Source: Octopus vulgaris (lineage: Eukaryota). Taken from it: a DNA stretch of 64,000 bases. Position 1 is the stretch's first letter; each line of letters opens with the position of its first letter. Below the pieces are notes generated by a model. It was not told where the DNA came from, searched no databases, and saw only the letters and a program-made list of their open reading frames with translations. Both the position numbers and the translations under genes were made by a program. Below, piece after piece: positions 5,509 to 63,905 of this stretch. The stretch is taken from contig OX597822.1 in NCBI GenBank assembly GCA_951406725.2, forward strand, positions 53,878,001 through 53,942,000, given 5' to 3'.

Positions 5509-5900
5509 TTATCCAAAATGTATAGTATTAAATATCTATTACAGCTGGTCTTACCAATCTGTTTCACGTAATGAATACAATGGAGTATTAGGTAACAAAC
5601 CGATTATATAACTTTACACTCATCAGAGTTAGCCACTATGGAATATGGCGACTGCTCTCTATCTGAATAGAATAGAAAGCAGTCACCATATTCTCTTTCA
5701 TATCAGCTAACTCTGATGAGCATAAAGTTATATAATCAGCTTGTTGTCTAACACTCCATTGTATTCTTTATGTGAAACTGATTGGTTAGACCAGCTGTGA
5801 TGGATATTTAATACTATACATTTTGGATAAGATACCTACTCTACTGACAAATATATGAGTGCATCTCTTCCCTAACTTATGGTCTCTTAGATGACTCACA
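5509..5900. mobile_element. Penelope-type non-coding element: about 320 bp imperfect palindrome with a hammerhead in each arm, plus tail
   Basis: Arms 5509-5664 and 5671-5830 are reverse complements. A short tail runs into a (TG)n/(TA)n microsatellite. Confidence 0.7.
5704..5797 (+). ncRNA. Type I hammerhead ribozyme motif, long stem II
   Basis: CAGCTAACT-CTGATGA-GCATAAAG...CTTTATGT-GAAAC-TGATTG-GTT-AGACCAGCTG. The inverted copy (5542-5633, -) has a GTA site. Confidence 0.6.
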
Positions 5901-6505
5901 TGTGTGTGTGTGTGTGTATATATATATAATCTCATTTCATTTGACCCTTGTCTGCGTGTGTATAGATCATGGTGTATCTATGCATGTAGACACGTGTGGG
6001 TATATACATACATAAATATGCGACTGTGTGTGTATGTACAGTGATGGATTTAAGGGTTTCGTTTATTTATGAGTTGATTTCTTAGTTTCACTGGAGTATA
6101 AATACCTATAATGGTGATAATTTAAATAAAAAAAAAAAAAAAAGAATCCAACTTACAAATTTTCCAATAAGCAAGTGGTTATAATATTTATATCCTTCAA
6201 TGAATTACAGTACCTGTGATTCGCCTGCCATCATTGGAAGATGTTGAAAACTCTTCTCAAATTCTATGCAATATTTTCTAGAAATATTTCATTTTGTTCA
6301 TTTTCTTTTTCATAATCGTGATTATTATTTGAATAATCATTTAGTCATATGCAAATTTCACTCATGCATTTGGCATAGACATCGATCAAGTCTTCTTTTA
6401 GCTGCCATCTACTTAGCCTTCTAATCCTCTTTTAGTCAAACACTTACAAAGCTTAATTCAGTTTAGTTAAAAAGCATGGCTAAGCAATGCATTGTAAACC
6501 ACGGT

Positions 6506-6975
6506 ATCATCATCATTATCATCATCGTTTAGCATCCGCTTTCCATGCTGGCATGGGTTGGATGGTTTGACTGGGGACTGGTGAGCCAGATGGCTGCACC
6601 AGGGCTCCAGTCTGATCTGGCAGAGTTTCTACAGCTGGATGCCCTTCCTCATGTCAACCACTTGAGAGTGTAGTGAGTGCTTTTACATGCCACCTGCACG
6701 AGGGCCAGTCAGGTGGTACTGGCAACGGCCACGCTCAAATGGTGTTTTTACATGTCACCCGTATAGGAGCCAGTCCAGCGGCACAGGCAACACTCTCGCT
6801 CGAATGTTGTTTTCACGTACCACTGGCACAAGTGTCAGTAAGGCGATGCTGGTAACAATCGTGGTCGAATGGTTGTTTTTTACGTGCCACTGGCATGGGG
6901 GCTAGTCAGCGGTCCTGGCAACAATCACGCTCGGATGGTGCTCTTAGCGCTCCACTATCACAGATGCCAGTCATG
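6506..6975 (-). mobile_element. SINE-like repeat with RTE-type tail (GGAAGGGCATCCAGCTGTAGAAA...(GAT)n)
   Basis: The same family recurs at about 15800-15930, 20090-20220, 23750-23930, 24550-24990, 38640-38750, 42241-42620, 51975-52290 and 54720-55080. Longer copies carry internal tandem GGTGGCACGTAAAAAGCACC units. Confidence 0.75.
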
Positions 6976-8080
6976 AGCACCACATGACTATAATTTGTGA
7001 AAAATTTATTTGCACACAGGATATGCATCGCCCCTTCGATGCCTTTGTTTTCTCATTCTGACATGCTTTAGCTTCAGGTTGATCCTGAACATGCAGGAAT
7101 ATTATCAAGCATGTTGCAGTTATCATTGTTTTATCTTTTTCCCCCAGACTACATTACCCAATGAGTCTTTCCTTTTTGAAGTCTAGATGATGTGCGAGTT
7201 GAGGGACGTTTAGTTAATATTTTTAGTGGGTTGAGCAATCATGTTGAGGTTTCCTCACTAGCTCATGTATACTTCTCCATTGCTGGTAGTATTAAAATAG
7301 AATTAGTTATCATATATTTAGACCAACTGTACAGGTAGTAAATACACTCTTGGCCTTGTTAAAATATTGTCCTTACAAAACCCTGTGCAAAAACAAATAT
7401 ACACAATTGATTTTCTTTCAGGTTTTAGTAGTCTAAAACATGGGAGTTTCTTTTAATGGTATGTGATGATGGCATTTACACTCTGTGTAACATCCTGCTT
7501 GTGATAAATCATATTCAGTAATCATCTGCTTATATCTATAATGAAGTCAGCATCAACACACCTGAATGTGGTGAGAAGAAGTTAATTTTGATGGGGTTAT
7601 TTAGCATTAGCTAATTCCTGATTGAGCATATCAGATATCTAGGAATGTATTACTCAATGTATATTCCTTTTTATGAGTTTGATTTGAGGCTGATTTGGTT
7701 ACTACCTCTAGTCAGTGACAGGGTATAGTATGGTGGAATGGCTAAGAGTAGTATATTTACAAGGTAGCTCATGGAAAGATGCTTGTACCATTTAAAAAGG
7801 AAATAGACTTTGTTTTCAATATGAGAGGAAGAAGGATGACAAAAATGTGTATAAAGAGCTGTTCAGAGTTAGGAAATTGTTTGCAGGAAGGGAGATAGAA
7901 TAAGTAAGTACTGTGTAAAGGAAAAATAGTTCCTTGTTCAAATAAACAGTTTACAATGTGGGCTGGAGAGTGACAAGGCAGAAGTGGTAGATTTAGGAGG
8001 ATTGTGATATGGTATGAGGTGGCAGTGTTAAAGCAGAGCCTTCAAATACTCAAGTTGTAACAGAGGCTCTATTGTATCAA

Positions 8081-8162
8081 AGAAAATTTAGAATAGACAA
8101 GAGTTTTTTAAAGAATCTTACAAAAATTTTTGCAAGATTCTTTAAAACTCTTGTCTATTCTA

Positions 8163-8170
<8 letters not shown>
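8081..8170. repeat. Near-perfect palindrome of about 90 bp abutting a (CT)n(TA)n(CA)n microsatellite
   Basis: AATTTAGAATAGACAAGAGTTTT..AAAGAATCTT is mirrored by AAGATTCTTTAAAACTCTTGTCTATTCTAAATT. Confidence 0.8.
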
Positions 8171-8250
<80 letters not shown>

Positions 8251-8405
8251 GCACATTTCTAAACAAGTATAAGTCGTATGAGAGTTAGAATCCAATGAAG
8301 ATGTATTAATCTATGGTATAATATATACAAAACCATCATAAACTAAGACACCAAGAACTAGAAACTTTATGAATGACACACACGCACACACACCATGAGA
8401 TAATG

Positions 8406-8447
<42 letters not shown>

Positions 8448-10306: not shown

Positions 10307-10693
10307 CTCTCTTTACTCTTTTACTTGTTTTAGTCATTTGACTGTGGCCATGCTGGAGCACCGTCTTTAGCCAAGCAAAGCGTCCCCAGGACTTATTCTT
10401 TGTAAGCCTAGTACTTATTCCATCGGTCTCTTTTGTCAAACTGCTAAGTTACAGGGACGTAAACACACCAGTATTGGTTGACAAGCGATGTTGGGGGGAC
10501 AAACACACACACATATATATACATATATACAACGGGCTTCTTTCAGTTTCCATCTACCAAATCCACTCACAAGGCTTCGGTCAGCCTGAGGCTATAGTAG
10601 AAGACACTTGCCCAAGATACCACGCAGTGGGACAGAAGCCGGAACCATGTGGTTGGTAAGCAAGCTACTTACCACACAACCACTCCTGCGCCT
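10307..10693 (-). mobile_element. tRNA-derived SINE (family 1)
   Basis: Reverse complement of the copy at 26386-26790. Confidence 0.8.
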
Positions 10694-11786
10694 AATTTAT
10701 CGACCTTGAAAGGTTAAGTAGACCTCAACAGAATTTGGTTACCAATTCTGCCAGCTCACTGCATTACCAATAATAATAATAATAATATTAATGATAGTTT
10801 CAGTGACAAGTATTAAAGATACATCATCATTGAGATTAATTTTTGTGTAGAACACAGATTCCTTGATAGGAAAGTAGGAGCAGAAATACGGAGCTGAACA
10901 TGAATTGTGAAATATTGAGCTTAACTCGAGCAACAGAGACTATAGAAATGTATATTTAACTGTCCTCTATTGTTGGGTTGGCTGTTATACAGAGTATGGA
11001 AAAGAAAAGAAAAGAAAACCTCCCAGATTCAACAGTCTTGGCAGATATTTCAACAGCAAATTTGCAGTGTGCACCAATCCAAACCACAATAGTGACTGAG
11101 CTGACAGAAAAGAAAAGAAAAAAAAAAAACTGTGTTTGCTGAATGATCCCCTCCCCTCTCCAGTAATTATTTTAAAAGTCTACTACTTATTCTATTGGTT
11201 CCTTTTGCTGCACCGCTAAGTTATGGAGGTGGGGATGTAAACACATCAACGCTGTCAAGTGGTGGTGGGAGATAAACACATAGATATACATACATGCACG
11301 CACACACATACACACACACTTGATGGGCTTCTTTCAGTTTCCTTTGACCAATTTCCACTCACAAGCCTTTGGTCAGCCCAGCGCTGTAAAAGGTACCATG
11401 CATGGGACTGAACCCAGAGCCATGTGGTCGGAAACCACACGCATACACATGCACATATATGTGGCAGACAAAAAATTCCGTTTTATTTACTCTCATTGTT
11501 GGCATCAAATTCTTCAATGGTAAAAAAAGACAACGAAAAAAAAAGTTGCTTCCCCGTTAAATGAATAAATGCAGAGACCAGTTTTTTTTTAAGAACTCCT
11601 TTTGAAATGTGTCGAAATTACTGAATTTTTATTATCTTAGTTGTCAAAATGTGTTGTTATGTTTATGTAAATGTTTTTGCAAGATTCTTGATGTGAAATC
11701 GTATGTTGAAACAGCTATTGTTTTATTTGGGGATGATCATATTTTGCCAGTCACTTCAGGTTTATTATAATCATTTGAGTTTTTTT

Positions 11787-11890
11787 TTCAAAGCTTTTTC
11801 GTCACTCATCCTGTGACCTCTTCAGCAAAGACACATGGGATAGAGAGTCACTGAAGAGGTCACAGGACGTGTGCCAAAAGAGCTTTGACA
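11787..11890. ncRNA. Inverted pair of degenerate minimal hammerhead motifs (Penelope-type)
   Basis: Plus copy: GTCA-CTGAAGA-GGTCACAGGACGTGTGCC-AAAA-GAGC-TT-TGAC. Minus copy: CTGAAGA-GGTCACAGGATGAGTGAC-GAAA-AAGCTT. The same family occurs at 46460-46505. Confidence 0.55.
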
Positions 11891-11906
11891 AAGAAACTAA
11901 ATTGAT

Positions 11907-11939
<33 letters not shown>

Positions 11940-12061
11940 GCTGAAATGAAAACCAAATATATTGTGCATGTGTTTTCATTGGCAAAATCGGATCATCTCC
12001 AAGTTTCAAAATATATATATATACTGTTTATTCATTTGACTATATTATTTTGTCATTTTAG

Positions 12062-12202
12062 ATTTACTTGACATTTTCAACTTGTTCGATGAAAAGGGAG
12101 ATGGAAAAATATCTGCACATCAACTTGGAGAAGTACTGAGAGCGATGGGAGAGAACCCAACCCAAGCTGAAGTGAAGAAATGTGGTTATGAAGGTAGAGA
12201 AA
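12062..12202 (+). CDS. Mlc-c: Myosin essential light chain exon 3 (DLLDIFNLFDEKGDGKISAHQLGEVLRAMGENPTQAEVKKCGYEGRE)
   Basis: TTTTAG acceptor and GTTAGT donor at 12203. Contains EF-hand 1 and the LRAxGxNPT motif diagnostic of ELC/calmodulin. Confidence 0.92.
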
Positions 12203-25872: not shown

Positions 25873-26385
25873 AAACTGAGCCAGGCGCAGCTCTCCAGCT
25901 CACCAGCTCCAGTCAAACTGTCAAACCCATGCCAGCATGGAAAATGGACGCTAAATGATGATGATGATAATGTATTTATGTGAATGTGTGTATGATCGAG
26001 TCTCCTTGTTTTGACATCTCGTAATAGTTGTGAGTATCTCTGTGACAGAAGTGTGTCTTACGTTTGTCTACTGCAATTTCTGGAATAGACAGACTGAGGT
26101 CAAACAGGCAGAAGGATAACCTTCGCCAGGTTAAAAAGTGCCGAAGGCACGCTATATGTCACAATGGCGCCCCTACCATTTCACGTAGAAGTTGAGGGTT
26201 CGAGATAAGGACACTAATACTACTGCTGTAACTGCAATTAATCTCCGTAATGACTCTAACTTTAATCGTCTCTAATTTTGGCACAGGATCAGCAATTTTA
26301 GGGGAAAGAGCAAAGTACTTTATTTTATCGATCCCGAAAGGATGAAAAGCAAAGTTGATATTGGCAAGTTTTGTTCAGTGGCTAT

Positions 26386-26790
26386 AGGCGCAGGAGTGGC
26401 TGTGTGGTAAGTAGCTTGCTAACCAACCACATGGTTCCGGGTTCAGTCCCACTGCGTGGCATCTTGGGCAAGTGTCTTCTGCTATAGCCCCGGGCCAACC
26501 AATGCCTTGTGAGTGGATTTGGTAGACGGAAACTGAAAGAAGCCTGTCGTATATATGTATATATATATATGTGTGTGTGTATGTGTTTCTGTGTCTGTGT
26601 TTGTCCCCCTAGAATTGCTTGACAACAGATGCTGGTGTGTTTACGTCCCCGTCACTTAGCGGTTCGGCAAAAGAGACCGATGGAATAAGTACTGGGCTTA
26701 CAAAGAGTAAGTCCCGGGGTCGATTTGCTCGACTAAAGGCGGTGCTCCAGCATGGCCGCAGTCAAATGACTGAAACGAGTAAAAGAGTAA
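26386..26790 (+). mobile_element. Full-length tRNA-derived SINE (family 1, CORE-like segment)
   Basis: A-box TGGCTGTGTGG, B-box GGTTCAGTCCC, TCTTGGGCAAGTG segment and internal (TA)/(TG) repeat. Many copies, e.g. 42885-43610, 43905-44290 (-), 55080-55424 (-), 58960-59320 (-) and 63560-63890. Confidence 0.85.
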
Positions 26791-27136
26791 CGGGAAAAAA
26801 TATCAAGCATTTTATCCGATGCGCTAATGATTCTACCTCCTCTCCGTCTTTGTAACTACCAGAAGTAATGAAAAAGTGTACTGGGTTCGAACTTGGAAAA
26901 AACCTCATTTAATTTTTAATAAGCAAAAACCTAATTACCCTATAAAATTAAAATATTACTATTACTATTATCTAACTGTTAAAGTAGTTATTGATCGGCG
27001 AATTGTAAAAGTGACTAAAGCAAAAGTAACTGTGACAGCAGAGTTGTGTCCCCTACACCGATGTCTTATAATCGTAAACCAATTTATATTTAAAGCGATA
27101 CACAACTTGTGGATGGCCGTGAAATTTTTCCCGACA

Positions 27137-27655: not shown

Positions 27656-28039
27656 CGTGGGTAAAAAACATTTCGTTGACTGGCCAGCATGTTTGAATCA
27701 GTGGCGATCTGGCAGAATCGTTAGCACGCCGGACGGAATGCTTAGCGGTATTTCGTCTGTCTTCACATTCTGAGTTCAAATTCCGCCGAGGTCGACTTTG
27801 CCTTTCATCCTTTCGGGGTCGATTAAATAAGTACCAGTTACGCACTGGGGTCGATATAATCGACTTAATCCGTTTGTCCTCTCAGCGTTTAGCCCCTTGT
27901 GGGTAGTACAAAAATAGGTTCTCATTTGGGATCCATATAAGATCTTGTTAAAATTTATGTGCAATAAATTGCTTATACCTCTACGATACACCAAGTATTT
28001 AAACTATGTATATATATATATAATTTATTATATAGAAGG

Positions 28040-28090
28040 AGCTTCTACAGGACTAGAACTGTTTCATTCAAGAGAAATCTTCAGGAAGCT
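28040..28090 (-). ncRNA. Type I hammerhead ribozyme (inverted copy)
   Basis: Exact reverse complement of 29682-29732. Confidence 0.75.
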
Positions 28091-28573
28091 AGTTAACGAG
28101 AATTGTATTGGCATTTATACATTTAGGCAGGTTTAAAGGGGTGGTGGTGGGGGACTTTTTGGGGGTAGGCATAGCGCAAAAAAATCATACTTGGGGGAGT
28201 GGTCAAGGAGTCAGTGGTAAATTAGATAGAAGAATAAATAAAAGAATAAAAAAAGGAGAATAAAAAAATATATAGAAGAATAGAGTTTTAGGTAAATAAG
28301 GAAAATCTCACTTATACCTATACACATATGTATACATATACACACACACACACACACATATACATACTCACATACATACACACACACCCATATATATATA
28401 TATATATATATACATACACACATACATATACATACATATCCGCATACATACATACATACACCCATACATACATACATATATACACACATACACACACCCA
28501 CACGTATACATATACATACATATACGCGCATGCATACACATACAAATACATACACATATACATATACATACAT

Positions 28574-28606
<33 letters not shown>

Positions 28607-28978
28607 CACATACATACACATACATACATACATATACATATCTACACACACACACATACATACACATATACACATACACGCACATACACATATACATGCG
28701 TACCCATACACACACACACACACACGCATCCATATATACACATAAGTACACACATGCGTAAAAGTATACATATATCTATGCTTACACATACACACACACA
28801 CACGCCACTCCTTATGTTCATACTTACATGCATACTCAAAAAATAAGTAATAAAATATATACGTGCAGTTATTCATACATGCATACTCAAAAAATAAATA
28901 ATAAATAATAAATAATAAATATTAAGTATATATACGTGCAGTTACCTATTATACAGACGGATACATACATATAAACTT

Positions 28979-29029
<51 letters not shown>

Positions 29030-29330
29030 CATATATATACATATATATATATATATATGTACACATACTTACACATATGTACATATACATACACACATAC
29101 ATAACTCTACGTACCTACATATACCTAAACACACGAGCGTACACGTATATGTACATATACACATACACATACACACGCATATATACATACATACACATAC
29201 ATACACGCACATATACACACATATATATATATATACATACATATATATACACATATATATATATATATACATATACACACATACACACATATATACATAC
29301 ATATACATACACACACATACACATACACAC

Positions 29331-29376
<46 letters not shown>

Positions 29377-29681
29377 ACATATACACATACATACATACAC
29401 ATACATATACATATACACACATACACACACACACATACATATATACACACCCACACACATACATATACATACACACATACCTAAAACTCTATTCTTCTAT
29501 ATATTTTTTTATTCTCCTTTTTTTATTCTTTTATTTATTCTTCTATCTAATTTACCACTGACTCCTTGACCACTCCCCCAAGTATGATTTTTTTGCGCTA
29601 TGCCTACCCCCAAAAAGTCCCCCACCACCACCCCTTTAAACCTGCCTAAATGTATAAATGCCAATACAATTCTTGTTAACT

Positions 29682-29732
29682 AGCTTCCTGAAGATTTCTC
29701 TTGAATGAAACAGTTCTAGTCCTGTAGAAGCT
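29682..29732 (+). ncRNA. Type I hammerhead ribozyme
   Basis: Stem I AGCTTC/GAAGCT, core CTGAAGA, stem II TTC/GAA, core GAAA, stem III ACAG/CTGT. The GUA site predicts cleavage after 29726. Confidence 0.78.
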
Positions 29733-29815
29733 CCTTCTATATAATAAATTATTTTTACTCTGCTATGTATTGAGTACCTTATTTACTGTGGTTAACCACG
29801 AATCAACCCGGGACC

Positions 29816-29855
<40 letters not shown>

Positions 29856-30586: not shown

Positions 30587-30834
30587 ATTGGTGTGAAGTT
30601 TGAGAGTTACTTCCCTTTATTAAAAAAAATATGCATTAAAATGGAAAAAAATGATGGTAAATTATTTGTAAAATCATAGACTCATCGTAGACGCGCGCTA
30701 ATACCCAGAAGGGCTCGATATGAATCACGACTATAAGATACCCGGTTTTGGTTAAACTGCATCGCAAAATGTGGGAGTAGTTAGGAATCTAAATCGGAGT
30801 AGACAGACACACAACCTTTCTTTTATATATAAAT

Positions 30835-31512
30835 ATTTTCGTCCTAAAAAACTTTGTATGGATTGAATGGTTACCTCTATGGAAATATATACACGCACAT
30901 TATACATACATGTGTGTATAGATGAATATATAAATACATTTAAATATCTATATACACTTTTGGGCGATCTTTCTGTTTCTTAGAGATAACTTTAGATCTT
31001 ATTTTCGTCCTAAAAAACTTTGTATGGAGTGAATGGTTACCTCTATGGAAATATATACACACACGTTATACATACATGTGTGCATAGATGAATATATAAA
31101 TACATTTATATATCTATATACACTTTTGGGCGATCTTTGTGCTACTTAGAGATAACTTTAGATCTTATTTTCGTCCTAAAAAACTTTGTGCGGAGTGAAT
31201 GGTTACGTGTATGGAAATATATACACACACATTATACATACATCTGTGTATAGATGAATATATAAATACATTTAAATATCTATATACACTTTTGGGCGTT
31301 CTTTCTGCTACTTGTATATACTTTAGATCTTATATTCGTCCTAAAAAACTTTGTATGGAGTGAAAGGTTACCTCTATGGAAATATATACACACACATTAT
31401 ACATACATCTGTGTATAGATGAATATATAAATACATTTAAATATCTATATACACTTTTGGGCGATCTTTCTGCTACTTGGATATAGGTCTTATATTCGTC
31501 CTAAAAAACTTT
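30835..31512. repeat. Minisatellite, about 166-bp unit, about 4 copies
   Basis: Units (A-T-T/A-TTCGTCCTAAAAAACTTT) start at 30835, 31001, 31167, 31332 and 31492. Confidence 0.9.
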
Positions 31513-33967: not shown

Positions 33968-34828
33968 CTAGCAGAATTGCCCGGCGTTGCTCGGGGCTGA
34001 ATTGCTTGAAAGTACTGTTAATGATTGCACTGAATTATGATGATTATTCAGGCAAATATTGAAATAAGCTTACGGTGGGAGATAAGGACTTAACGCCAAA
34101 CGTGTGCCATTGCATTGTTTTGGGGGAACCAAATTTCTGATGAGCATTATAGGGGCACTAACTTTAAGTTTGAGAAAGTGTGGTGGTAGTCCGGGGTGCT
34201 CAAAGGAATTGAGTACCCCTATTGGATAGTTGATGACGTCCTCTGGGTCAGGAGTTGTATCGATAGACTGATATACATCGACTTCCCCAGGAATGAGTTT
34301 TAGCATTTCATCATTAATATGGTGAACAGTTTTATTCCTCGGTGCCAGTATAGCCTTTTTGCCAATCCAATCCATATTCTGATAATTAGCTTGTAAATCT
34401 GGGAACACTGCATCTCTGATATCAGAAGGCGTCTTAACAATGGTACAAATGGAATCGATGGCAATATTACCATTTTTATCCCCTGGTATTTTGCCTTCGC
34501 CAAGTGCAAGGAGAGTGTGAGGAAATGCTGGTGATGTGATATTACGTCGCATATGAGCACGCATATTGGTGTGAAGTTTGAGAGTTACTTCCGTTTATTT
34601 TAAAAAATATGCATTAAAATGGAAAAAAATGATGGTAAATTATTTGTAAAATCATAGACTCATCGTAGACGCGCGCTAATACCCAGAAGGGCTCGATATG
34701 AATCACGACTATAAGATACCCGGTTTTGGTTAAACTGCATCGCAAAATGTGGGAGTAGTTAGGAATCTAAATCGGAGTAGACAGACACACAACCTTTCTT
34801 TTATATATAAATACATACATACACACAC

Positions 34829-39465: not shown

Positions 39466-41580
39466 AACATTGTGTACAGTGCTCAGGTGCACTATAACTC
39501 ATCTAAAGTGTATGTATAGTACATAGGGTAATGTACAAGCATCAGGAAAAGAACAGTGCATGAGTCATGACATACACATATGTGTATGAGTATGGAAGGG
39601 GGACAATCAGGTGTAGTTTCGGCGGATTTCGGAAGGCATGAGGGTCTTAAAGGATGCAGTGTCATGGCAGTCAACAACTGATGCAGGCAGTTTGTTCCAT
39701 GCTTCAGCAACTCTGAGCGTGAAAAAATGTTTCCGAAAGTCATGGGAGCTGTGCTGTTTTCTGACTTTGTAGGCATGTCCACGTGTGTTGGACACATGGA
39801 GATCAAAAAGGTGTTCAGTGTTGTTGTTGGTGAGGTGGTTGATAACTTTGTGGGTGTTTACCAAGTTCATCGCCAGACACCGGAGCTTCAGTGAATCCAT
39901 GCCCAGGGAAACAAGGTGCTCAGAGTATGGTAGGTGTCTGATGGAGGGTATGCGTTTGGTTGCACGTCTCTGAACAGATTCCAGGAAGTCAATGTTCTGA
40001 GCAAGATAGGGGTTCCAAACTGATGATGTGAATTCCAAGTGTGGTCGTACCATAGCTGTATACAGCTTCAAATAGATGACTGGAGAGTGGCTAACAAAAG
40101 TCTTGCTGAGTGATGCTAAGACACCCTTGGCCTTCTTGACAATTTTAGAGATATGCTTTGTCCAACGCAAATCACTGCTGACAGTGATGCCTAGGTCACG
40201 CTCGCAAGAGGATTTCTTGATATCAGTGTTGTGGAGGGAGTATGTGGACGCAGGGTTTTTTCTCCCAAAATGCATGGTGGTACACTTGTCCACAGCCAGT
40301 TTCAGTTACCAGTCTGTGATCCATTGCTGCATTATGTCCAGGTCTGATTGCAGGAAAGAGTTGTAGACATCAGGATCTGTCCTCTTGATTTCAAGGTACA
40401 GCTTGATGTCATCTGCATATTTCAATGCTGTGGCATTCTTTAAATTAGCATCTATGTCATTAATGTATGCCACAAACAAGAGGAGACCAAGAACAGATCC
40501 CTGTGGTACACCCGATGACATCTCATATGGTGTAGAATGCTGTCCTAGAACTGTGACTACCTCCTTTCGGCTGAGAATGAAGGATTTCAATCAGTTAAAA
40601 AGATCATCCCTCACACCCATTGCAGAGAGTTTCACCATAAGCCTTTTGTGTGGTACAGAATTAAAAGCCTTAGCAAAGTCAAGGTAGACAACATCCACCC
40701 ATGAGCCACTGTCAGTGATCTGAGTAATGTCCTCAAGGAACTCGACAAGCTGATCACTGCAGCTGGAGTTAGGGACAAATCCATATTGTGAGGGTCGGAT
40801 GAGACTGTGAGAGCTCCAGAAGTTCCAAAGTGTTTCTCTGACACACGATTCCATCAGTTTTGCAATACAGCTAGTGAGACTGACTGGGCAATAGTTGACA
40901 GGTGATGTGCGGTCGCCCTTTTTGAACAGAGGAATGACACTGGCGGTTTTCCACTGCTCCAGAGTAGCACCATTGTTGAGACAGTACTGCAAAAAAATAG
41001 AAAGCTGGTGTAAAAGGAAGTACCTGCCACATTTGAGAAGCAGGTATGTAACACCATCAAGACCAGGGCAGGCATAGTTGCGCTTATTTTGAAGGTGACG
41101 TCGCAGCATTGCAGGTGTAAATTCCATGGTTGTTATGGAATTTGCTGTTAGAGATGGTGAAGATGGTACATTTTGATTTTCAACAGTGAATATGCTTGCA
41201 TAGCACTCGGCAATGAGTTCTGCGCATTCCTTGGGATCGTCAGTGATCTGGCTTGTGTGAGGGTTGCGAAGAGGGCCCACTGGAGAGTGAGGTCTCTGCT
41301 TCGAATGCACATATTTCCAGAAAACCTTGCTGTCAGGATTGGCTGCTATGCACTGTTCAAATTCAAGCACTGCTTTTTTTGTCACTTGCTTGAGATGGTT
41401 GGAAGATTTATTCCGCTTTTTCCTGTTGGTGTCTGATTTATGCAACTTGTATTCCCATTCAGCAGTCTGACGTTCCTTCCTGGCAAGTTGGACCGCTGGA
41501 AAACTTTATGGAAAACTTTAGACAAAGGTTTTGATTCTGAGGTAAGAACCCATAGTTTGTTTTTATTGGAAACCTCCATA
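39466..41580 (-). mobile_element. CR1-group LINE, 5'-truncated, RT domain with stops and frameshifts
   Basis: Motifs PLFKKGD, PVSLTS, YLDFAKAF, GVPQGSVLG, YADD, VRPHLE and ESVQRRATK. It ends at a (TAA)n tract. Confidence 0.92.
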
Positions 41581-43105
41581 TCAAGGAATCTTTATTGATT
41601 CTCCGACTTAACCCCAAAATTAACAATTGGCTGGAGCTGCCACTGCCATAACCAATTTCTTTCTTTTCTTTTCTTTTCTACTATAGACACAAGGCCCGAA
41701 ATTTTTTGGGAGGAAGCCAGTCAATTAGATCGACCCTAGTATGTAACTGGTACTTAATTTATTGGCCCCGAAGGATGAAAACCAAAGTCGACCTCAGTGG
41801 AATTTGAACTCAGGACGTAAAGAAAGACGAAATACCCATTCCTTTACTACCCACAAGGGGCTAAACACAGAGAGGACAAACAAGGACAGACAAACGGATT
41901 AAGTCAATTATATCGACTTCAGTTCGTACCTGGTACTTAATTTATTGACCCCGAAGGATGAAAGGCAAAGTCGACCTTGGTAGAATTTGAACTCAGAATG
42001 TAAAGAGAGACGAAATACCGCTAAGCATTTCGCCCGGCGTGCTAACATTTCTGCCAGCTCGCCGCCTTGCCATAACCAATATCATCACCACTATGATGAT
42101 GATTGGTATTGTTGCCTGCATGCACCAACTTTGCCACTGCTGTGATTGAAACCATCATTGCTACAATGATGAATTTTGTCATTTTCTCCCAGGCCCTTTA
42201 CACCAACTACTACAACATCTACCCCTATTACTACAAATACTACATAAAAAGCACCATCCGAATGTGGCCGTTGCCAGTGCAGCCTCCACTGGCTTCTGTG
42301 CTGGTGGCACATAAAAAGCATCATCCAAACGTGGCCGATGCCAGCACCGCCTTGACTGGCTTCTGTGCCGGTAGCACAAAAAAAAGCACCAACCGATCAT
42401 GGCCGATGCCAGACCCCTCTGGCACCTGTGCAGGTGGCACGTAAAAAGCACCCACTACACTCGCGGAGTGGTTGGCGTTAGGAAGGGCATCCAGCTGTAG
42501 AAACACTGCCAGATCAGACTGGAGCCTGGGGCAGCCCCTGGCTCCCCAGACCCCGGTCCAACCGTCCAACCCGTGCTAGCGCGGAAAACGGACGTTAAAC
42601 GATGATGATGATGATGACCACCACTGCTGTCAACATACAGCAAACCATCCATCCTTGTCCCCACCCCCACTGTAGTCGACTTTTTTAGCCACCAGCAACA
42701 TTATTTTTGGAGAACTGCTGTTGCTATCATTCCATTTGACAAACTGGGTGGGGGCAGACAAAGTAGGTTTGTCACTACCTATTCAGCAATCAACATGGCA
42801 GCAATCAACATTAGTGGTTCTCAACCAGGGTCCATTTGGCCCTTGGGGGGTTCACATAGGATTTTTGTTGTTAAAATTTATTGTGGCTGCGTGGTAAGAA
42901 GCTTGCTTCCCAAATACATGGTTTTGGGTTCAGTCCCACTGTGTGACATCTTGGGCAAGTGTCTTCTACTATAGCCTCAGGCTGACCAAAGCCTCAAGAG
43001 AGGATTTGGTTGATGGAATCTGAAAGAAGCCCATCATATGTATGTGTATATATATATATCATCATCATTGTTTAATGTCCGTTTTCCGTGCTTCCATGGG
43101 TTGGA

Positions 43106-43159
<54 letters not shown>

Positions 43160-44404
43160 CATCATCATTGTTTAATGTCCGTTTTCTGTGCTTGCATGGG
43201 GTTGGACGATATATATATATATATATATGGCCTGCTCGCTTAGCCAGCGGGGTGGTGTCATTTGAAGGCTCAAAACAATGCAAAGCTCATTGTGACCAGT
43301 GATGTGCCGCAACATCTGATAGCCTGGTCGGTCACGGTGACGATGACGGATATATATATATGTATGTATATATCTGTGGGTGTGTGTCTTTGTGTCTGTG
43401 TTTGTTCCCTCATCACTGCCTGACAACTGGTGCTGATGTGTTTATGCCTCTGTAACTTAGCTGTTCAGCAAAAGAGACTGATATAATAAGTACTAGGCTT
43501 AAAAATAAGTCCTGGGGTTGATTTCTTTGATCAAAACTCCTCGAGGTGGTGCTCTAGGATGGCCACAGTTAAATGACTGAAACAAGGAAAAGAATAAAAG
43601 AATAGTACACAAAATATTTCAACAATTTTTTAAAAACAATTCCTAATAATATTTAATTATAACGATATGATATAATTTTTGAAACATTGAATGCCTAGGA
43701 GGGTCCATTTGAGTGAAACAGGAACAAGGGGGTCCATAGGTGAAAAAAAAAAAATGGTTGAAAAATACTGATCTACATAAACTCACATTTCTAAACTATT
43801 CATTTCTGATGATGGACCTCTGTGACTAAAATATATAAAGGGTGTTTGTTTTTTTAACTTACCCTTTTTGCATTGTGAGAAATTCTCTGTCTTCATTATT
43901 TGTTACTCTTTTACTTGTTTCAGTCATTTGACTGTGGCCATGCTGGAGCACCGCCTTTAGTTGAGCAAATTGACCCAGGACTTATTCTTTGTAAGCCTAG
44001 TACTTATTCTATTGGTCTCTTTTGCTGAACCGCTAAGTTACGGGTACGTAAACACACCACCATCGGTTGTCAAGCGATGTTGGGTGGACAAACACACACA
44101 CACACACACATATATACATATATACAATGGGCTTCTTTCAGTTTCCGTCTACCAAATCCACTCACAAGGCCTTGGTTGGCCCGAAGCTATAGTAGAAGGC
44201 ACTTGCCGAAGGTGCCACACAGTGGGAATGAAACCGGAACCATGTGGTTCATAGCATAAGCAAGCTACTTACCACACAGCCGCTCCTGTCATTTTAACTT
44301 TTCAAGTAGGCCATGGTAGGATTTGAACATAAAACACAAAGAGAGAGAAGAAATATCACAAAATAGCTAGTAAGAAAGAAAAGTATTGGTGTAGTCCTCT
44401 AATA

Positions 44405-45142
44405 TGTGAACGTGACCTGGGCATTATTGTCAACAGCGACTTGTGTTGGACAAAACACATTGCTAAAATTGCCAAGAAGGCTGAGGATGTCTTGGCATCA
44501 CTCACCAAGTCCTTTGTGAGCCACTCTCCGGCTATCTATCTGCAGCTTTATATAGCTATGGTGCAACCTCACCGGGAATTTGCATCAGTGGTCTGGAACC
44601 TCTATCTTGCCCAGGATATTAATTGTCTGGAAACTGTTCAGTGATGTGCAACCAAGAGAATACCCTCCATCAGGTATTTGCCATATTCTGAATGCCTTAC
44701 TTCCCTGGGCATGGATACATTGAAACTCCGACGTCTGACAGCTGACTTGGCAGACACCCATAAAATTATTAATCACCTTACTAACAATAACTCTGAGCAC
44801 CTTTTCAAACTCCACCTGTCTAACACCTGTGGACATGTTTACAAAGTCAGAAAACAGTACAGCTTCCATGACTTTCGGAAACATTTTTTCATGCTAAGAG
44901 TTGCTGAAGTATGGAACAAACTGCCGGCATCAGTTGTTAGTTGTTGGAGCACTGCATCCTTCAAAGCTTCCATCCTTCCTGAGATTCACCAGCACTACAC
45001 CTGATTTTCTCCCCTCCATACACATGCAAGCATGTATCTGACACATACACTGTTCACTTCCTAGATATTTGTACATTACTGCATATACTTTATATGCACT
45101 TTTGACAAGTTGTAGTGCACCTGAGCACTGAATACAATAATT

Positions 45143-46325: not shown

Positions 46326-47575
46326 ATAACAATTTATAAATATGGTTTTATTTGGAGATGGTCAAATTCAATTTTTGTCAAATTAACCACTCTATAAACT
46401 TGTTCTTCACTTCAGCTTTGTTATCATTCTGGATGGAGAGAATAATTATTGGGATGGAGTGTCACTGAAGAGGTCAAAGGATGTGTGATGAAATATTTCC
46501 AGACAATGGACATAAAATAAGAACAATAATAAGCAAGTGAAGAATGAATACACAGTGTGTGTGTTTATTTGGCAAGAAAAAAATTGACCGTCCCTAAATA
46601 TAACAATACATGATTCTGATTACACATCAGAAAACTTGCAAAACAAATACATAAATTTATAAATATATATATATATATATAAATCAATTTATAGAATTTT
46701 ATTATCATCTTCAACATCATTATTTATAAAGACATCTGTTTAGATATTTTCTTAAAAAAAAAAAGAAAAGAAAAAATTAAAAACTAAAAAATAACATTTT
46801 TCCAGTTTTCCATATCAAATATATTTCCGCTAAATGAAAGCATCATGTACAATATTAATTATATTGCCTAAGTTTTTCTTCATGTAGTCATGAAAACAGT
46901 TTTAGCAGCTGGTCTAATGGTAATTGCATTGGTTCCTAAATATAAGAGTTGCAGCTCAAATTGGGTCACAATATAATTCTAAAAAGAGTTAGTCTTTGAT
47001 GAAATGTAAAATGTTCTATGAAAATGTGTTTTTTAACCCTTTTGTTACCAACCCACCTGAAACTACTCCTGGTTCTAGGACACAAGCATCCTCTCTTAAA
47101 ACAGTCTATATTGAAATCGTCCATCAAAATTTCATGTTAATTTAAGTTCCAAGCACCAGCTTAATAATGACAAAATTCTTGTGCTAAATTCTTAATTAGT
47201 TAAAAAATTAATTGAAGGAAAAGTTCTATATTTCAGCAGAAATATGGCAACAAAAAGGTTAACAAGCCATTGGCATCATTAGAATCACAATGCAACACTT
47301 ACCTCAAACAGAAAGTAAGGAATATTTTAGCAAAAGTATCAAATATAAATTTTATAAAATTTTTGGATAATTGCTTTTTTTTTATATTTTACATTTAAAT
47401 ATATATATAAAAAAAAGAAATTTTGTTTTGCCAGTATGAGTTGTGATACTAAAAGATTTGGAACTGTTGGTTTATTGGAATGGAAGAATAAAATCCAGTT
47501 AGGAGAGTTAAGAGCGCTGAAGTTTACCAAGTTATTACTAACAAAGCATTTTTAGTGTTCATGCAACGCTGGTTA

Positions 47576-52680: not shown

Positions 52681-55228
52681 CTGAAATGGAGGAATTAATG
52701 TTTTAATCATACAAATTTGAAACAGTAGCAAAAAATATATTTGAGCTGGGACATATGCAAGTGTCTCAGATGTATAGAGAAAGAAATTAATGCTGTGACA
52801 ATTATACCTTTACAAAAAAAAAAAAGCATTAGAAATATAAGTAACGATGATGATGATGGTAGTGGTTATCATGGTGGTGGTGGTGATGATGATGATAGTG
52901 ATGATGATAATGATGGTGATGATGATGATGGTTATGATGCTGCTGCTGCTGATGTTGATCACTACCTCTCCAAGATCATGCAGGTGAACTAGACCAAAGT
53001 GTGTTACATCATTTATATGGTAACTGTCACATTTGTATGTTATAAGTGTGATGTTTATAAGTCTCTACATATTGATATTTGGTGAGTCCAACTGAAACAG
53101 ACAGTATTAACTTAAAATAACCATGAGTCTATTATACTAAATGTATGTATTTTTAGCAAAACATGTCTAAAAAGAGATTTTCTCTCAGATAATTCCACAG
53201 CAGCATGCCTTCCTGCTGTGTGTATGCCTTTAGTATGTTACACAGACAGCAATTTTAATATAATAATGTTTGAATTGCTTGCACTAAATTTTTCACAACC
53301 TGGCAAGCATTCTGCAATATCAGTGAATGTATTATTCACTGATTTCTATATCGAGGCATGAATTTCATTCAAGCATATGACAAATGGGTACACATTGCTG
53401 ACAAGACCCAAGAAGGGGTCTAACACTCTCAAGAGTCACTGTTGCGATGAGGTTCCCTTTGCTTTGATATAAATTGTGATTTTAACACAACAATTCTATG
53501 AAAGGATTTTGTGTGAGACAATTCCATAGCATTATGTCTTTTAAAAATATGTATACATTTTGTATGATACACGGATGTTTTTTCCCGTGCCAGAGAGGCA
53601 ACGCTGGTAATGATCACGCTTGAATGGTGCTTTTTACGTGCCACCGGCACGGAAGCCAGTCAACTGCTCTAGCAATGATCACGCTCGGATGGTGCTCTTA
53701 GCGCTCCACTAGCATGGATGCCAGTCATTGAATTTGATTTCGATTTAAGAAAATTGGGTTTATTTTTTGGTGGAGTTTACTTAAAAACACTCTTCATCTA
53801 ATGGAATGATGACTGAGTGAAGAAACCTCTATACAAACATATGGTCTGCTAAAAATAACGACCAAATCTTACTAAACTCATAACTTATATATAAAAAAAT
53901 GCAAGTCCATGTTTGATAATGTGATCTTAGATAGACAATGACTGAAGCAAAACAAACAAAAAAACAAAAGACAAGATAGTTAGTGTGGGAATGCTTTTGA
54001 TCATAGATTTGTTGATGAATTCTGACCTAGGGTTAAACAGGAACATTGACAGTAACAACAGCAAAAACACGACATAAATAACAACAACAACAACAACAAC
54101 AGCACCACCACAATGATGACCACCACTACCCCCACCACCACCAGGCGAAATGCTTTCATTTCACGAAATTACTTAATCAAATTATCTGAATTATTAATTA
54201 AATATATTTAAGTGTAGCGCCCATAATTTTTTTCTTTTTTAGTAACTTGTAAAGCTGCCAATGATATTTAGAAATAATTAGTCATATTGACTTCTAGCAT
54301 TGGCAAAATCCGACAAATTTTGGAGACAGGTATCCTCCTCCTCCTCCTCACCACCACCACCACCACCATTTTAACATACACTTTTCCATGCTTGCATGGG
54401 TTGGTCAGAATTTATTGAGGCAGATTTGTTATGGTTGGACACCCTTCCTGTCACTAACCCTCACTTGTTTTCTAAACAAAGTAACTCCCTATGGTCAAAC
54501 TTTTTTTTTATTAATGGAAGGTTGGAAATGAATGATATCATGCGTATGATATCAAGACACGGGACAAATACACACACACACACTTCCTACATCCTCTTCT
54601 ACACATTCCCCCCACACACTCCCATATACGTGTGTGTATGTTTGTTTGTGTATGTGTGTGAGTGTGTGTGTATATTTACATAGCAACAACAACAACAACA
54701 TTAATGGAAATTGTAGCTGTGATACCAGTGCCGGTGGCACGTAAGCGAACCATCCAAATGTGGCCATTGCCAGCGCCGCCCCGACGGGCCGCCATGCCAG
54801 TGGCATGTAAAAAGCACCCTCCGATCGTGGCCATTGCCAGCCTTGCCTGGCCCCTGTGCCGGTGGCACATAAAAAGCACCATCCGACCGTGGCCGTTTGC
54901 CAGCCCCGTCTGGCACCTGTGCCAGTGGCATGTAAAAAGCACTCACTACACTCACGGAGTGGTTGGCGTTATGAAGGCCATCCAACCGTAGAAACATTGC
55001 CAGATCAGACTGGGCCTGGTGCAGCCTTCCCAGACCCCAGTTGAACCGTCCAACCCATGCTAGTTGGAAAGTGGACGCTTTAGTTGAGTAATTAACACTA
55101 GGACTTATTCTTTGCAAGCCTAGTACTTATTCTATCGGTCTCTTTTGCTGAACCGCTAAGTTACAGGGATGTAAACACACCAGCATCGGTTGTCAAGTGA
55201 TGTTGGGGGGACAAATACAGACACACAA

Positions 55229-55265
<37 letters not shown>

Positions 55266-55425
55266 CATATATACGACGGACTTCTTTCAGTTTCCGTCTA
55301 CCAAATCCACTCACAAGGCTTTGCTCGGTAGAAGACACTTGCCCGAGGTGCCACGCAGTGGGATTGAACTCTGAACCATGTGGTTTGTAAGCAAGCTACT
55401 TACCACACAGCCACTCCTACGCCTA

Positions 55426-59112: not shown

Positions 59113-59156
<44 letters not shown>

Positions 59157-59391
59157 CTGGCTTCTTTCAGTTTCCATCTACCAAATCTAGTCATAAAGCT
59201 TTGGTCGGCCTGAGTCTACAGTAGAAGACACCTGCCCAAGGTGCTATGCAGCGGGAATGAACCTGGAACCATGTGGCTGGTAAGAAAGTTACTTACCACA
59301 CAGCCACTCCTGCACCTATATATATACTTTATTTAAAAGCAGCAGAAATTTAACAAAAGCTGTTACTCGGAGTTTTATATATATATATATA

Positions 59392-60139: not shown

Positions 60140-60183
<44 letters not shown>

Positions 60184-61076
60184 CAGACTTGTTTGGAGAC
60201 GTCTTGGTCGACAACACACAAACGTGTGCCGTGCCAGGCCGGAGCATCCATGACAACCTCCATCTGATGCGCTACATCATAGATAGAGTAGTTAAGGAAC
60301 CTGGCATGGGTGGGTCCCTGATCAACTTTGATCAATCGAAAGCCTTCGATAGGGTAGACCATCGATACATGGAGGCAGTCCCGAGAGCGGCTGGTTTCGG
60401 TCCCGTCTTTCGCGGCTGGATAGCTGCCTTGTACAGAGGCATCCGTTCGGTAATTCGTGTAAATGGACATCTATCGAGACCTCTCGACATTGCACGTTCG
60501 GTCCGTCAGGGATGCCCCCTTTCGGCGCTTCTATACGTATAGACTCTCGAGCCACTACTGCGGAAGCTGGCGACTCTGAGGGGCATCCCGCAAGAATTGG
60601 GATGCGGGACGAGCATGTCTGCATACGCGGACGACGTCACCGTCATAGTGTCAAGCCACGTGCCTATCAAGCTGGTCGGCGAGACACTGAAAGACTACGA
60701 AGCAGTGACAGGAGCAAAAATCAACCGGGAAAAGTCAGTGGGCTTGTGGCTCGGCACCTGGAGAAGCAAGCCCATGCCGTCCACCAGTACCTCTGTCGTG
60801 GGACGCTGGACAGACAGCCCGGTTGAGTTGCTCGGGGTCTGGTTCGGTCTGGACCTCCAAATGGAGAAGAACTGGAATGAGATAACGAGTAGGGTGGTCA
60901 CTCTCGCCCGGCAATGGGCCGAGAGGAAACTGTCCCTAAAAGGTTGGGCGGAGGTGGCGAACACGTACATCGCATCCATCATCTACTACCGCCTGACCGT
61001 CGTACCTTGTCCCGACCCTACCATAACCAAACTAGAACGCATTCTCTTCCGCTTCTTGTGGAAAGGATGCGTCCCC
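60184..61076 (+). mobile_element. L1/Tx1-clade LINE reverse-transcriptase fragment
   Basis: RSIHDNL, DQSKAFDRVDH, VRQGCPLS, in-frame TAG, AYADDV and GAKINREKS. GC-rich and adjacent to (TCTA)n. Confidence 0.9.
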
Positions 61077-61459
61077 AACACATTCCCCAACACATTCCAA
61101 CCTCTGATTCACAAACATGATGTCACCTTTCCTTTCATCTTTTTTACATGACTACTTTGTGTCTGCTCCTCAGAGCTGGCTGGTCTAATGTTACTCTAAT
61201 TCAGAGAAACCTAACTTATTTATTTCTTATCCTTTTAGCAGCCATATTGTGTCTATTTTCAGGTCCTATGCTACCTACTTTATCCAGTTTGTCCTCCTCA
61301 AAATGTCGGCTCTCTAGAAATCCCTTCCCTGACCATTTTTTATTGTAATCAAGAGGAATACAAAATGTGTCAATATCATGGGCTTTGGAAGACCTACAGG
61401 GGCGACAAGCATTACTTCTCTTCCAGATCAGAACAGCAATATAATAAGAGCAACCAAGA

Positions 61460-61680
61460 TAGGAGTGGAGTCAAGGTTGGAGTGGAGTCAAGGCTGGCAT
61501 AGAGACAAGGCTGGAATAGAGTCAAGGTTGCAGTGGAGTCAAGGCTGGAGTGGAGTCAAGATTGAACTGGAGTCAAAGCTGAAGTGGAGTCGAGGCTGGA
61601 CTGGAATAATGGTAAGAGTGGAGTCAAGGCTAGAGTGAAGTCAAAGCAGCAGTAGAGTTGAGTTTGGAGTGGAGTCAATG
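61460..61680. repeat. Degenerate minisatellite of about 20 bp (GGAGTGGAGTCAAGGCT-like)
   Basis: About ten GAGTCAA-containing units. Confidence 0.8.
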
Positions 61681-62702
61681 ATAGGGGTAAGCTGACACTT
61701 GAGTAGAAGAAGGGAAAGTTCCCAGAAAATTTTGTGTCTGTCATTTTGTTTGTTATTTTTTATCATCATTTTAATATTTACTTTTTCCTGCTTTTATGGA
61801 TCAAAAATTATTTAAAAAATATTTTTGAGGTAGATTTTCTGTGGTGAAATGTTCTTTCTGTGGCCAAACTTTGCTTGTTTCTAAGCAATATTTCCCATGG
61901 CCAAAACAGTGGGCTGGCAGAATTGACAAAATGCCTAGCAGTATTTTGTCTGACTTTTCATTCTGAGTTCAAATGCTGTCAGGGTTGACTTTGCCTTTCA
62001 TCCTTTCAAGATTGATAAAATAAGCACAAGTTGAACACTGAGTTCAATGTAATTGACCTACTCCTTTCCTCCAAATTGCTGGCCTTGTGCCAAAATTTGA
62101 AACCAATATTTTCCATGACTGATGACTGGAAACAAATGATGTCACTTTTATGGTGATAGCTGTTTACAATTACTAAGCCATGTCAAGATAAAGAAACACA
62201 AACAAGTGTACACACACGACCCCCACTCCTCAGAATTTTGCCTCCCAGTCACATAGTTCTGAGTTCAGTCTTACTGTGTGACACCTTGGCCAGGTGTCTT
62301 CTGCTGTAGCCATGGGCCAACCAAAGCTTTGTAAGTGGATTTGAGAGACTGAAAGAAGCCTGCCATATATATGTATATACATTTGTGTATGTGTGTGTGT
62401 ATTATTGTCTCCTTGGTTTGTCATCGTGTGATAGTTGTAAATGAGCGTCACTGTCACGTAAGTGGCGTCCTTCATATCCAATCTTTCATGAGAAACATGC
62501 TTGCTTCAGAGAAATATTACATTACATGGAAACACGCAATGGTTAGTGACAGGAAGGGTGTCTGGCTGTAGAATATCCACCTCAACAAATTCTATGAACA
62601 TGGAAAAAGTGACTGTGAGATGATGATGATGATGATATGTATATATAAATATGTGTAGATGCATACATACATAAATATATAATATGTAATATATAATATG
62701 TA

Positions 62703-62738
<36 letters not shown>

Positions 62739-62761
62739 ATACACACATATATATATATATA

Positions 62762-63163
62762 TTTGAGTAGAAAAATGAAATATCTTTTTATGGATAATTC
62801 GTTTAACCGATACCTGGGTAGCAAATTCACATAAAAAATAACACGGTTGAAGTTACGTGCCTAGGGCAGAGACTACGTGTTTTCGTGTGGAAATTTGTGT
62901 GTATTTTTATAAAATTTATGAATAAATGAAAGAATGGAGTTGAACGACAAATTAACAAATTTCCTTTATTTTCGACATATGTTTCGAAGGCTGCATATTC
63001 CTAATTGTGAAGGAATAAGGAGTACATTATGCCGCTTTCTCATCAGGAAAAAGAAGGAATTTATGTCAACATCAAGATTCACAAAAAACTTTTAGATGAC
63101 GGCTTTCACGGACCGCATAGCAATAATTCAACTCCATTCTTTCATTTATTCATAAATTTTATA

Positions 63164-63169
<6 letters not shown>
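62762..63169 (-). mobile_element. Penelope-type mini-element with a 43-bp inverted end, between (TA)n tracts
   Basis: 62902-62944 is the reverse complement of 63127-63169, and a hammerhead lies between them. Confidence 0.75.
62961..63059 (-). ncRNA. Type I hammerhead ribozyme with palindromic stem III
   Basis: Minus strand TTTTC-CTGATGA-GAAAGCGGCATA...TATGCAGCCTTC-GAAAC-ATAT-GTC-GAAAA. The core is canonical and the site is GUC. Confidence 0.82.
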
Positions 63170-63235
<66 letters not shown>

Positions 63236-63320
63236 ATCCAAACATGAAAACACAAAGAGAAAACACAACAACGTGAGGACGTGGAACAAATATAGTATTG
63301 TTGGACACTCAGGAAGGAAG

Positions 63321-63355
63321 ATTTAACGTTTCGAGCGGAGCTCTTCGTCAGAAAC
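63321..63355 (-). ncRNA. Minimal hammerhead motif in a (TA)n-flanked element (63231-63427)
   Basis: Minus strand GTTT-CTGACGA-A-GAGCTCCGCTC-GAAA-CG-TT-AAAT, with palindromic AACGTT. Confidence 0.65.
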
Positions 63356-63905
63356 ATAGGAAAAGGAAAGATCCAGAGAAAGAAAGACGGAGGAAAAAAA
63401 TCGCCAACGGTACACACGCGGTCACAATATATATATATATTATGTTACTTGGAAACACGTAATTATATTATTATTATATTATTATTATAATATTATTATA
63501 TTATTGTATGTACATATGCATATATTTATATATTATTTATATTATTATATAAACCCGGAATCAGCCACATGGTTCCAGGTTCAGTCCCACTACATGAAAC
63601 CTTGGCCAAGTTTTGCCTACTATATCCTTGGGCTGACCAAAGCTTTGTGAGTGGATTTGGTAGAAACTGAAAGAAGCCCGTCTCTCTCACACACACACAT
63701 ATGTGTATGTGTCTTTGTATCTGTGTTTGTCCCTCACCACTGCTTGACAACTGGTGTAGTTCAGCAAAAGAGATTTACATGATAAGAACCAGGCTGAATA
63801 AAACAAAATTATTTGGGTCAATTCATTCTACTAAAGATTCTCCAAGGCAGTGCCCTAGCAGCCTATTGACTGAAACAAGTAGAAGATAAAAGTTGTATAT
63901 GTATA

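Follow-up and report, generated by a model that had tools for sequence, protein, structure and literature searches.

The stretch of the Octopus vulgaris genome analyzed here (64,000 nucleotides (nt) of contig OX597822.1, positions 53,878,001 to 53,942,000 of the forward strand; hereafter the window) carries type I hammerhead ribozyme motifs in five families of short repeats, and we are confident from sequence comparison that these are short end pieces, from the 3′ pseudo-long terminal repeat (pLTR), of five protein-coding families of Penelope-like elements (PLEs). The best overall explanation, which we consider probable, is that these are PLE end pieces lying in (TA)n and most likely inserted by the elements' own reverse transcriptase (RT)-endonuclease. 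We label the families A (5.5–5.9 kb in the window), B (11.7–12.0 and 46.4–46.7 kb), C (28.0–29.8 kb), D (62.8–63.2 kb), and E (63.2–63.4 kb), with F for a sixth family. The genome was searched as 2.8 Gb in 227 contigs, loci fetched from it carry L numbers, and signed positions (−6, +62, and so on) are offsets from the first base of the hammerhead core.

Hammerheads were sought with a type I descriptor that combines the core, a stem II of at least 3 bp, a paired or palindromic stem III, UH, and stem I. In the window, the descriptor found 6 motifs compared with a mean of 0.25 (maximum 2) in 40 Markov shuffles, and a stricter version with a stem I of at least 3 bp found 4 compared with 0.1 in shuffles. 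The 6 motifs lie in A, C, D, and E (core positions in Table 1). All three copies of B (cores at 11851+, 11825−, and 46465+) are mutated and fail the descriptor, and a consensus of 25 genomic copies of B restores the full motif, with one extra base after A9. A first-pass annotation made from the letters of the window had described type I hammerhead motifs in five families at one motif per 7–8 kb, and both statements hold: with the degenerate B copies included, the window has 9 motifs in 6 insertions, or approximately one per 7 kb. Its extent for B at 11.8 kb is too narrow, the insertion covering approximately 11675–12010, and the fragment of F at 59322–59375 is missing from it. Rfam yielded no hammerhead among the best 150 of 197 matches, nor in two focused scans. 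Rfam matches to microRNAs were dropped as microsatellite noise under the curated thresholds, and other core-plus-GAAA strings (e.g., at 34137, 19781, and 17910) were dropped because they failed the stem test. The window as a whole is AT-rich with many microsatellites.

In a 400-kb sample of the genome (40 segments of 10 kb at round coordinates), the descriptor gave 10 matches compared with a mean of 1 in 8 shuffles, and the motif density of the window is approximately 4-fold that of the sample. Three of these 10 come from C, D, and E, five from further families, and two are probably chance. Extrapolation from the 10 matches gives an estimate of approximately 60,000 intact-looking motifs genome-wide (range approximately 27,000–120,000). 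All five window families are dispersed, with 870–3310 first-look candidates each; exact matches to a 28- to 30-nt motif number 5694 for C, 748 for D, and 2928 for E, and exact hammerhead-motif matches number 4055 for F. The motifs from the further families (L242, L253, L258, L274, and L280) are unrelated, and those of L242 and L258 sit head-to-head with fragments of Hydra-like open reading frames (ORFs). Across at least 11 unrelated stem sets (the six families and these five motifs) the core is kept, and this conservation points to selection in the source elements. Once inserted, copies of A appear to decay neutrally: their changes follow CpG decay on the two strands, and several have lost G12. 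Apparent covariation between the two arms of A was rejected as such CpG decay, and C and D are too young to inform on this point.

We identify the window copies as short 3′ pLTR pieces of PLEs because longer copies in all five families run upstream into coding sequence for a GIY-YIG endonuclease. In A, L077 and L081 share 1.1 kb that ends in a CxCX5C linker and GIY-YIG domain, and in D the C terminus of the endonuclease is common to L046, L056, L052, and L041. In B, L125 reads into the GIY-YIG domain, the consensus of 20 loci has a CX4CxxC linker and a CCHH endonuclease, and the hammerhead of B lies downstream on the same strand in 11 of 20 loci that were picked by their endonuclease. In C, L143 has an uninterrupted RT-endonuclease frame of 601 residues 3.1 kb ahead of the hammerhead, and L221 and L222 consist of a pLTR, an intact frame of 718–722 residues, an untranslated region (UTR), and a second pLTR. 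The order in all three C loci is RWR, DKT, RT, CxCX5C, and GIY-YIG, then the UTR, then the pLTR, and Pfam did not recognize this ORF, giving one unrelated weak match only. In E, L182 has RT and endonuclease 1.7 kb upstream, and a sister subfamily (L381–L395; e.g., L384, 1767–4790) has open frames of 883–1061 residues with weak Pfam RVT_1 and GIY-YIG matches, arranged in 6.2-kb head-to-tail tandems. Copies of this sister subfamily are near-identical, with a weak stem I and C in place of U4 in the core, and it seems to be the recently active one. An intact single ORF with RT and GIY-YIG was seen in C and in the sister of E, A, B, D, and E proper yielded only broken C-terminal parts, and many copies of F have an intact frame of 727 residues (L231–L238 and L411–L422). 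A chance neighborhood of long copies and ORFs was not seen in any family. The claim in the first-pass annotation that the elements have no ORF thus stands for the window copies, in which tblastn with three PLE proteins found no PLE coding piece, but not for the families; for C, the autonomous partner sharing the pLTR, of the kind that it had proposed to look for, is given by the intact frames between two pLTRs.

These families also have pLTRs from partial tandems, an inverted 5′ copy, an optional tail, and a type I hammerhead motif in the pLTR, as expected of PLEs, and the link to Penelope with its hammerheads, inverted ends, and (TA)n targeting had been drawn correctly from the window alone. 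Within the window, inverted arms are present in A, B, C (99% identical), and D and absent in E, and (TA)n or (TG)n(TA)n adjoins A, C, D, and E, so that both features are found in most families, as had been stated. Insertion at (TA)n was seen for the Hydra-type families (C and F, with A and D as partial members). For E, a TA run lies within 20 nt of the 3′ end in 25 of 29 scorable copies versus 3.7% of random positions.

By motifs and architecture, following the definition of Craig et al. 2021 and not from a tree, C and F appear to be Hydra-type, A very likely is, and D probably is, and E and B appear to be Neptune/Nematis-type, a call that we do not split between those two clades. The Hydra clade is defined, in the available text of Craig et al. 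2021 (PMC8557442), by DKT, an RWK-like motif, a CxCX5C linker, and CxxC plus CxH without CCHH. The full set is found in C (with RWR) and F, the linker and C-terminal motifs in A, and the C-terminal motifs only in D; an assignment of A, C, and D to Neptune was dropped once this definition was checked. As far as that text describes the clade, C and F are like it in the RWK-like motif, DKT, CxCX5C, CxxC and CxH around the E/N residues, the absence of a cysteine pair inside GIY-YIG, the pLTR hammerhead, (TA)n insertion, the tail at one end, and the inverted 5′ copy. They differ in size, the members described there being generally less than 3 kb, whereas the C unit is approximately 5.5 kb (with a 2.5- to 3.4-kb UTR) and F approximately 3.4 kb. 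E and B combine a CX4CxxC linker with an internal cysteine pair and two histidines (the Neptune/Nematis reference being CX2-5CxxC and CCHH) together with minimal hammerheads that have one extra base after A9, and E inserts at (TA)n. E differs from that reference in its 1.7- to 2.9-kb AC-rich UTR, in the fixed 210-nt piece that makes up most of its copies, and in the U4C core of its youngest subfamily.

The first regularity of the inserted copies concerns their 3′ ends. Four families have two fixed 3′ ends, one without and one with a tail of 65–140 nt, at +62 and +131 in C, approximately +145 and +282 in D, +72 and +142 in F, and approximately +122 and +187 in A. In 55 of 56 head-to-head pairs, one arm is tailed and the other is tail-less: 19 of 19 in C (from 22 insertions, 3 of which looked single), 14 of 14 in D, 12 of 12 in F (drawn from 16 short pairs that were fetched), and 10 of 11 scorable pairs in A, where 2 further loci went unscored. 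In B, 15 loci were left unscored, confused by an (ATA)n run. Published work goes no further than to say that a tail is often present at one end. Either arm may extend further 5′ or hold sequence that is absent from the other. In L319 and L322 of D, the tailed arm consists of the tail only and the other arm of upstream sequence, without overlap, and in the window copy of C the tail-less arm is the long one. Because the arms of L319 and L322 differ and the tail-less arm of the window C copy is longer, neither arm is a fold-back copy of the other. The paired ends argue that two cDNAs were primed separately. Since like-with-like pairs are nearly absent, we infer that one RNA served both primers, and an asymmetric dimer of two RNAs would fit as well.

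The second regularity concerns the 5′ joints at which the two arms meet. In C, 657 loci genome-wide join exactly on the AGCT that opens stem I, compared with 2 loci at an adjacent CTAG and 1 locus at a six-base palindrome 10 nt upstream, and 1716 arms run intact through the AGCT joint. Among compact C pairs, 16 of 17 have neither arm extending past −8, and 12 have an arm that starts at −5 to −8. A TATA box lies 29 nt before the C joint, by hand count, in the window and in L222, L345, L361, and L366 despite their differing spacers, and approximately 29 nt is the usual distance from a TATA box to a transcription start. In E, 26 of 30 motif-picked copies begin between −84 and −65, at an initiator-like TCATTC or shortly after it; one of the remaining four starts at −95, one beyond −1400, and two are shorter. 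Most joints of F lie at −11 to −24, with 144 loci sharing one joint. The simplest reading of these joints, to which we give roughly even credence in combination with two-primer insertion, is run-off at the 5′ end of the RNA.

A rather doubtful alternative is that the inverted arms result when a single cDNA, or an antisense template, primes itself or folds back at palindromes (Arkhipova 2013), in which case the joint would mark microhomology or an RT block and not the RNA 5′ end. The joints of C and F do fall on self-complementary 4-mers and contain YAG, a possible 3′ splice site, a block at which is the chief alternative to run-off, and the intron of Drosophila virilis Penelope ends at the 5′ end of helix I (PMC4209133, available text). 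Simple fold-back cannot, however, give pairs such as L319, L322, and the window C copy, where sequence absent from one arm is present in the other and vice versa, and the longer palindrome 10 nt upstream of the C joint is used once versus 657 times. For a spliced template, one guessed donor join gave 0 genomic copies, a result that holds for that donor only. It is very improbable that the short palindromes are long-read assembly artifacts: small indels in one arm of several C palindromes resemble hairpin base-calling errors, but the asymmetry of the arms is rule-bound, their flanking sequence is unique, and in two further public runs, which come from different studies, contigs depart from the reference at the very base where the C arms join.

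Two-primer insertion and run-off can be put together in a mechanism that, taken as a whole, could in our judgment about equally well be right or wrong. The mRNA would start at the pLTR promoter (in C, where hammerhead stem I begins), and the endonuclease would cut both strands of (TA)n. Each DNA end would then prime RT at one of the two internal start sites, and both cDNAs would run toward the 5′ end of the RNA and join by microhomology, leaving a short palindromic insertion. Long copies would derive from tandem or read-through transcripts on which priming occurs in a downstream pLTR. Tentatively, the tens of thousands of solo and palindromic pieces may then be the standard run-off product of PLE retrotransposition and not the result of random 5′ truncation. 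Insertion probably does not require hammerhead cleavage, since the cut site lies within the inserts examined; these were picked by motif, however, so copies made from cleaved RNA would be missed.

Several points weigh against this mechanism and the explanation as a whole. It is read from genomic sequence, with RNA starts, cleavage, and circles being predicted, and the clades, as said above, are assigned by motifs. D has no hard 5′ stop, its 30 arms starting anywhere from +47 to beyond −900. One A locus (L074) has both arms tailed, and two of the samples were selected, that of A by BLAST with a tailed query and that of F by joint spacing. In E, inversion is rare (1 of 30) and there is a single 3′ end, which places this family outside the two-primer step. 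Lastly, minimum-energy folds of the C, D, and E segments miss the complete hammerhead fold and lend no support to stable folding of the monomers; only that of D folds better than shuffles (z −2.7), and not as a hammerhead.

The first-pass annotation had instead proposed non-coding retrozyme or mini-element families mobilized in trans, which the coding links in all families and the lack of tandem monomer arrays leave unsupported. A narrower version, in which the short forms (the 210-nt E form, the approximately 200-nt C palindrome, and the palindromes of F) are non-autonomous mini-elements or retrozymes amplified in trans by PLE proteins, is in our view unlikely, but the E and C forms do look like discrete mini-elements, so that a trans-mobilized sub-lineage among them is conceivable. 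These forms have a fixed length and occur in thousands of copies (the exact matches given above for E, C, and F), and non-autonomous pLTR derivatives have been described in Chlamydomonas and Xenopus. In addition, 8 of 11 near-full-length C loci share a frameshift, which affects one base near residue 380 (L224–L230, L239, and L240) and may mark a trans-mobilized lineage; it falls in a C-run, and it may be an assembly or sequencing error. The same C joint, however, is shared by two or more core variants and several loop variants, the two arms of a copy usually being of one variant, as if the insertions were made anew, the joints scatter by a few bases, and long and short copies of E share a hammerhead variant. 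Retrozymes, as far as the available texts go, are head-to-tail tandems of 150- to 450-bp monomers that yield circles (Cervera and de la Pena 2020, PMC7229834; Li et al., bioRxiv 2026.07.22.740005). The octopus copies are like the non-LTR retrozymes described there in their type I hammerheads, short non-coding units, and relation to PLE pLTRs, and differ in being solo or head-to-head and in coming from coding families. A second same-strand copy within 1.5 kb was found at 0 of 30 loci of C, 0 of 30 of D, and 3 of 30 of E (all motif-picked), and at none in the window. A retrozyme identity was rejected on the absence of tandem monomers and the presence of coding sequence in the families.

A third regularity is that the UTRs of two families resemble microsatellites. 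Alternating purine-pyrimidine sequence makes up 63–68% of the C UTR (2.5–3.4 kb) and 51–58% of that of E and its sister (1.7–2.9 kb), compared with 8% in the sampled genome and 4–28% in A, B, D, and F (UTR loci: window 28295–29477, L143, L221–L230, and L381–L386). In the window, approximately 1.2 kb of apparent microsatellite at 28.3–29.5 kb belongs to the C element. These UTRs look like host microsatellite and travel with the element.

Among known systems, L1 twin priming, in which two target ends prime two cDNAs and an inversion results, resembles two-primer insertion in its pair of primed cDNAs. In L1 the second primer is variable and there is little duplication, whereas the start sites of the octopus PLEs are both fixed and their arms usually overlap. 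For Poseidon PAc of Anolis, RT has been reported to start at two internal sites, which delimit the tail, and to extend both strands of the target (Frangieh et al. 2024, PMC11167929); this supplies a chemistry for two-primer insertion. Its likeness to the octopus elements extends to AT-rich targets and dispensable hammerhead cleavage; it is of another clade, and inverted pairs and fixed 5′ ends are not described in the available text. Metazoan PLEs have thousands of single minimal hammerheads per genome, which have been read as truncated PLEs (Cervera and de la Pena 2014, PMC4209133, available text). That work reports opposite-strand pairs 100–700 bp apart, an extra base before stem II, and a palindromic stem III as seen here, and we take it to concern the same phenomenon; the text available includes no cephalopod and no tally of arm ends or joints. 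For PLEs, minimal hammerheads scattered through a genome, pairs on opposite strands, and targeting of (TA)n have thus been described before, and what we report is a known phenomenon in a further genome. Penelope-like families are listed among recently active octopus repeats in a paper whose available text mentions no hammerheads (PMC13282606). A literature search that covered few subscription papers found none on octopus PLE hammerheads, strict tail pairing, start-site joints, or PLEs with microsatellite UTRs.

Table 1. PLE pieces and other features of the window, with positions counted from its first base; cut sites are predicted.
Feature	Position	Strand	Details
Family A inverted arm, without tail	5505–5662	−	Hammerhead core 5626
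Family A pLTR arm with tail, then (TG)n(TA)n	5671–5900	+	Hammerhead approximately 5704–5796, core 5713, cut after 5787; 3′ end of a PLE with Hydra-type linker, 84–90% like other copies
Family B inverted arm (the longer-ending arm)	11675–11825	−	Degenerate hammerhead core 11825
Family B pLTR arm with internal (ATA)n run	11828–12010	+	Degenerate core 11851; 3′ limit set by eye at the TA run
Family C long arm, without tail	28021–29477	−	pLTR (core 28084) and approximately 1.2 kb of microsatellite-like 3′ UTR; lacks a block of several hundred bases that L143 has
Family C short arm with tail, then (TA)17	29478–29818	+	Core 29688, cut after 29726; TATA box 29653; stem I 29682–29687 pairs with 29727–29732
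Second family B insertion	46400–46653	+	Degenerate core 46465; short inverted piece 46400–46428
Family F fragment (Hydra-type)	59322–59375	−	Cut within the hammerhead; ends in a TA run
Family D pLTR arm with tail	62762–63127	−	Core 63046, palindromic stem III, cut after 62974
Family D inverted arm, 42 nt	63127–63169	+	Ends at the tail-less site; no hammerhead
Family E solo pLTR piece, approximately 200 nt	63231–63427	−	Between TA runs; minimal hammerhead, core 63351, one extra base after A9, cut after 63325
Exon-like EF-hand stretch	12082–12192	+	Weak Pfam matches under the cutoff
SINE-like short repeats	10308–10694; 26383–26795; 42883–44249; 55090–55266; 59117–59320		Abundant, dispersed
Inverted pair, 534 nt	39673–40206 with 44405–44938		81% identical
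Tandem repeat, 166 bp	30834–31512		4 copies

Of the other features in Table 1, the EF-hand stretch resembles a myosin light chain or calmodulin-like protein, and the B insertion at 11.8 kb stops approximately 70 nt before it, probably in an intron. The repeats resembling short interspersed nuclear elements (SINEs), the 534-nt inverted pair, and the 166-bp tandem contain no hammerhead motif by the descriptor.

As an item in a catalog, the finding is ordinary, PLE pLTR hammerheads being known across animals, and its value lies in what it suggests about mechanism. The available texts of Craig 2021 (PMC8557442) and Frangieh 2024 (PMC11167929) treat the origin of the head-to-head repeats and one-sided tails of PLEs as an open question, and C and F, two young and very abundant families with intact ORFs, give base-exact predictions for the RNA start, the RT starts, and the joint. 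If two-primer insertion with run-off is true, it would explain why PLEs form inverted repeats with a tail on one side, why tandem copies are needed, and why minimal hammerheads abound in animal genomes. If the microsatellite-like UTRs are likewise what they seem, PLEs would be carriers that spread their own kind of target, and retrotransposition, not only slippage, could fill this genome with dinucleotide repeats.

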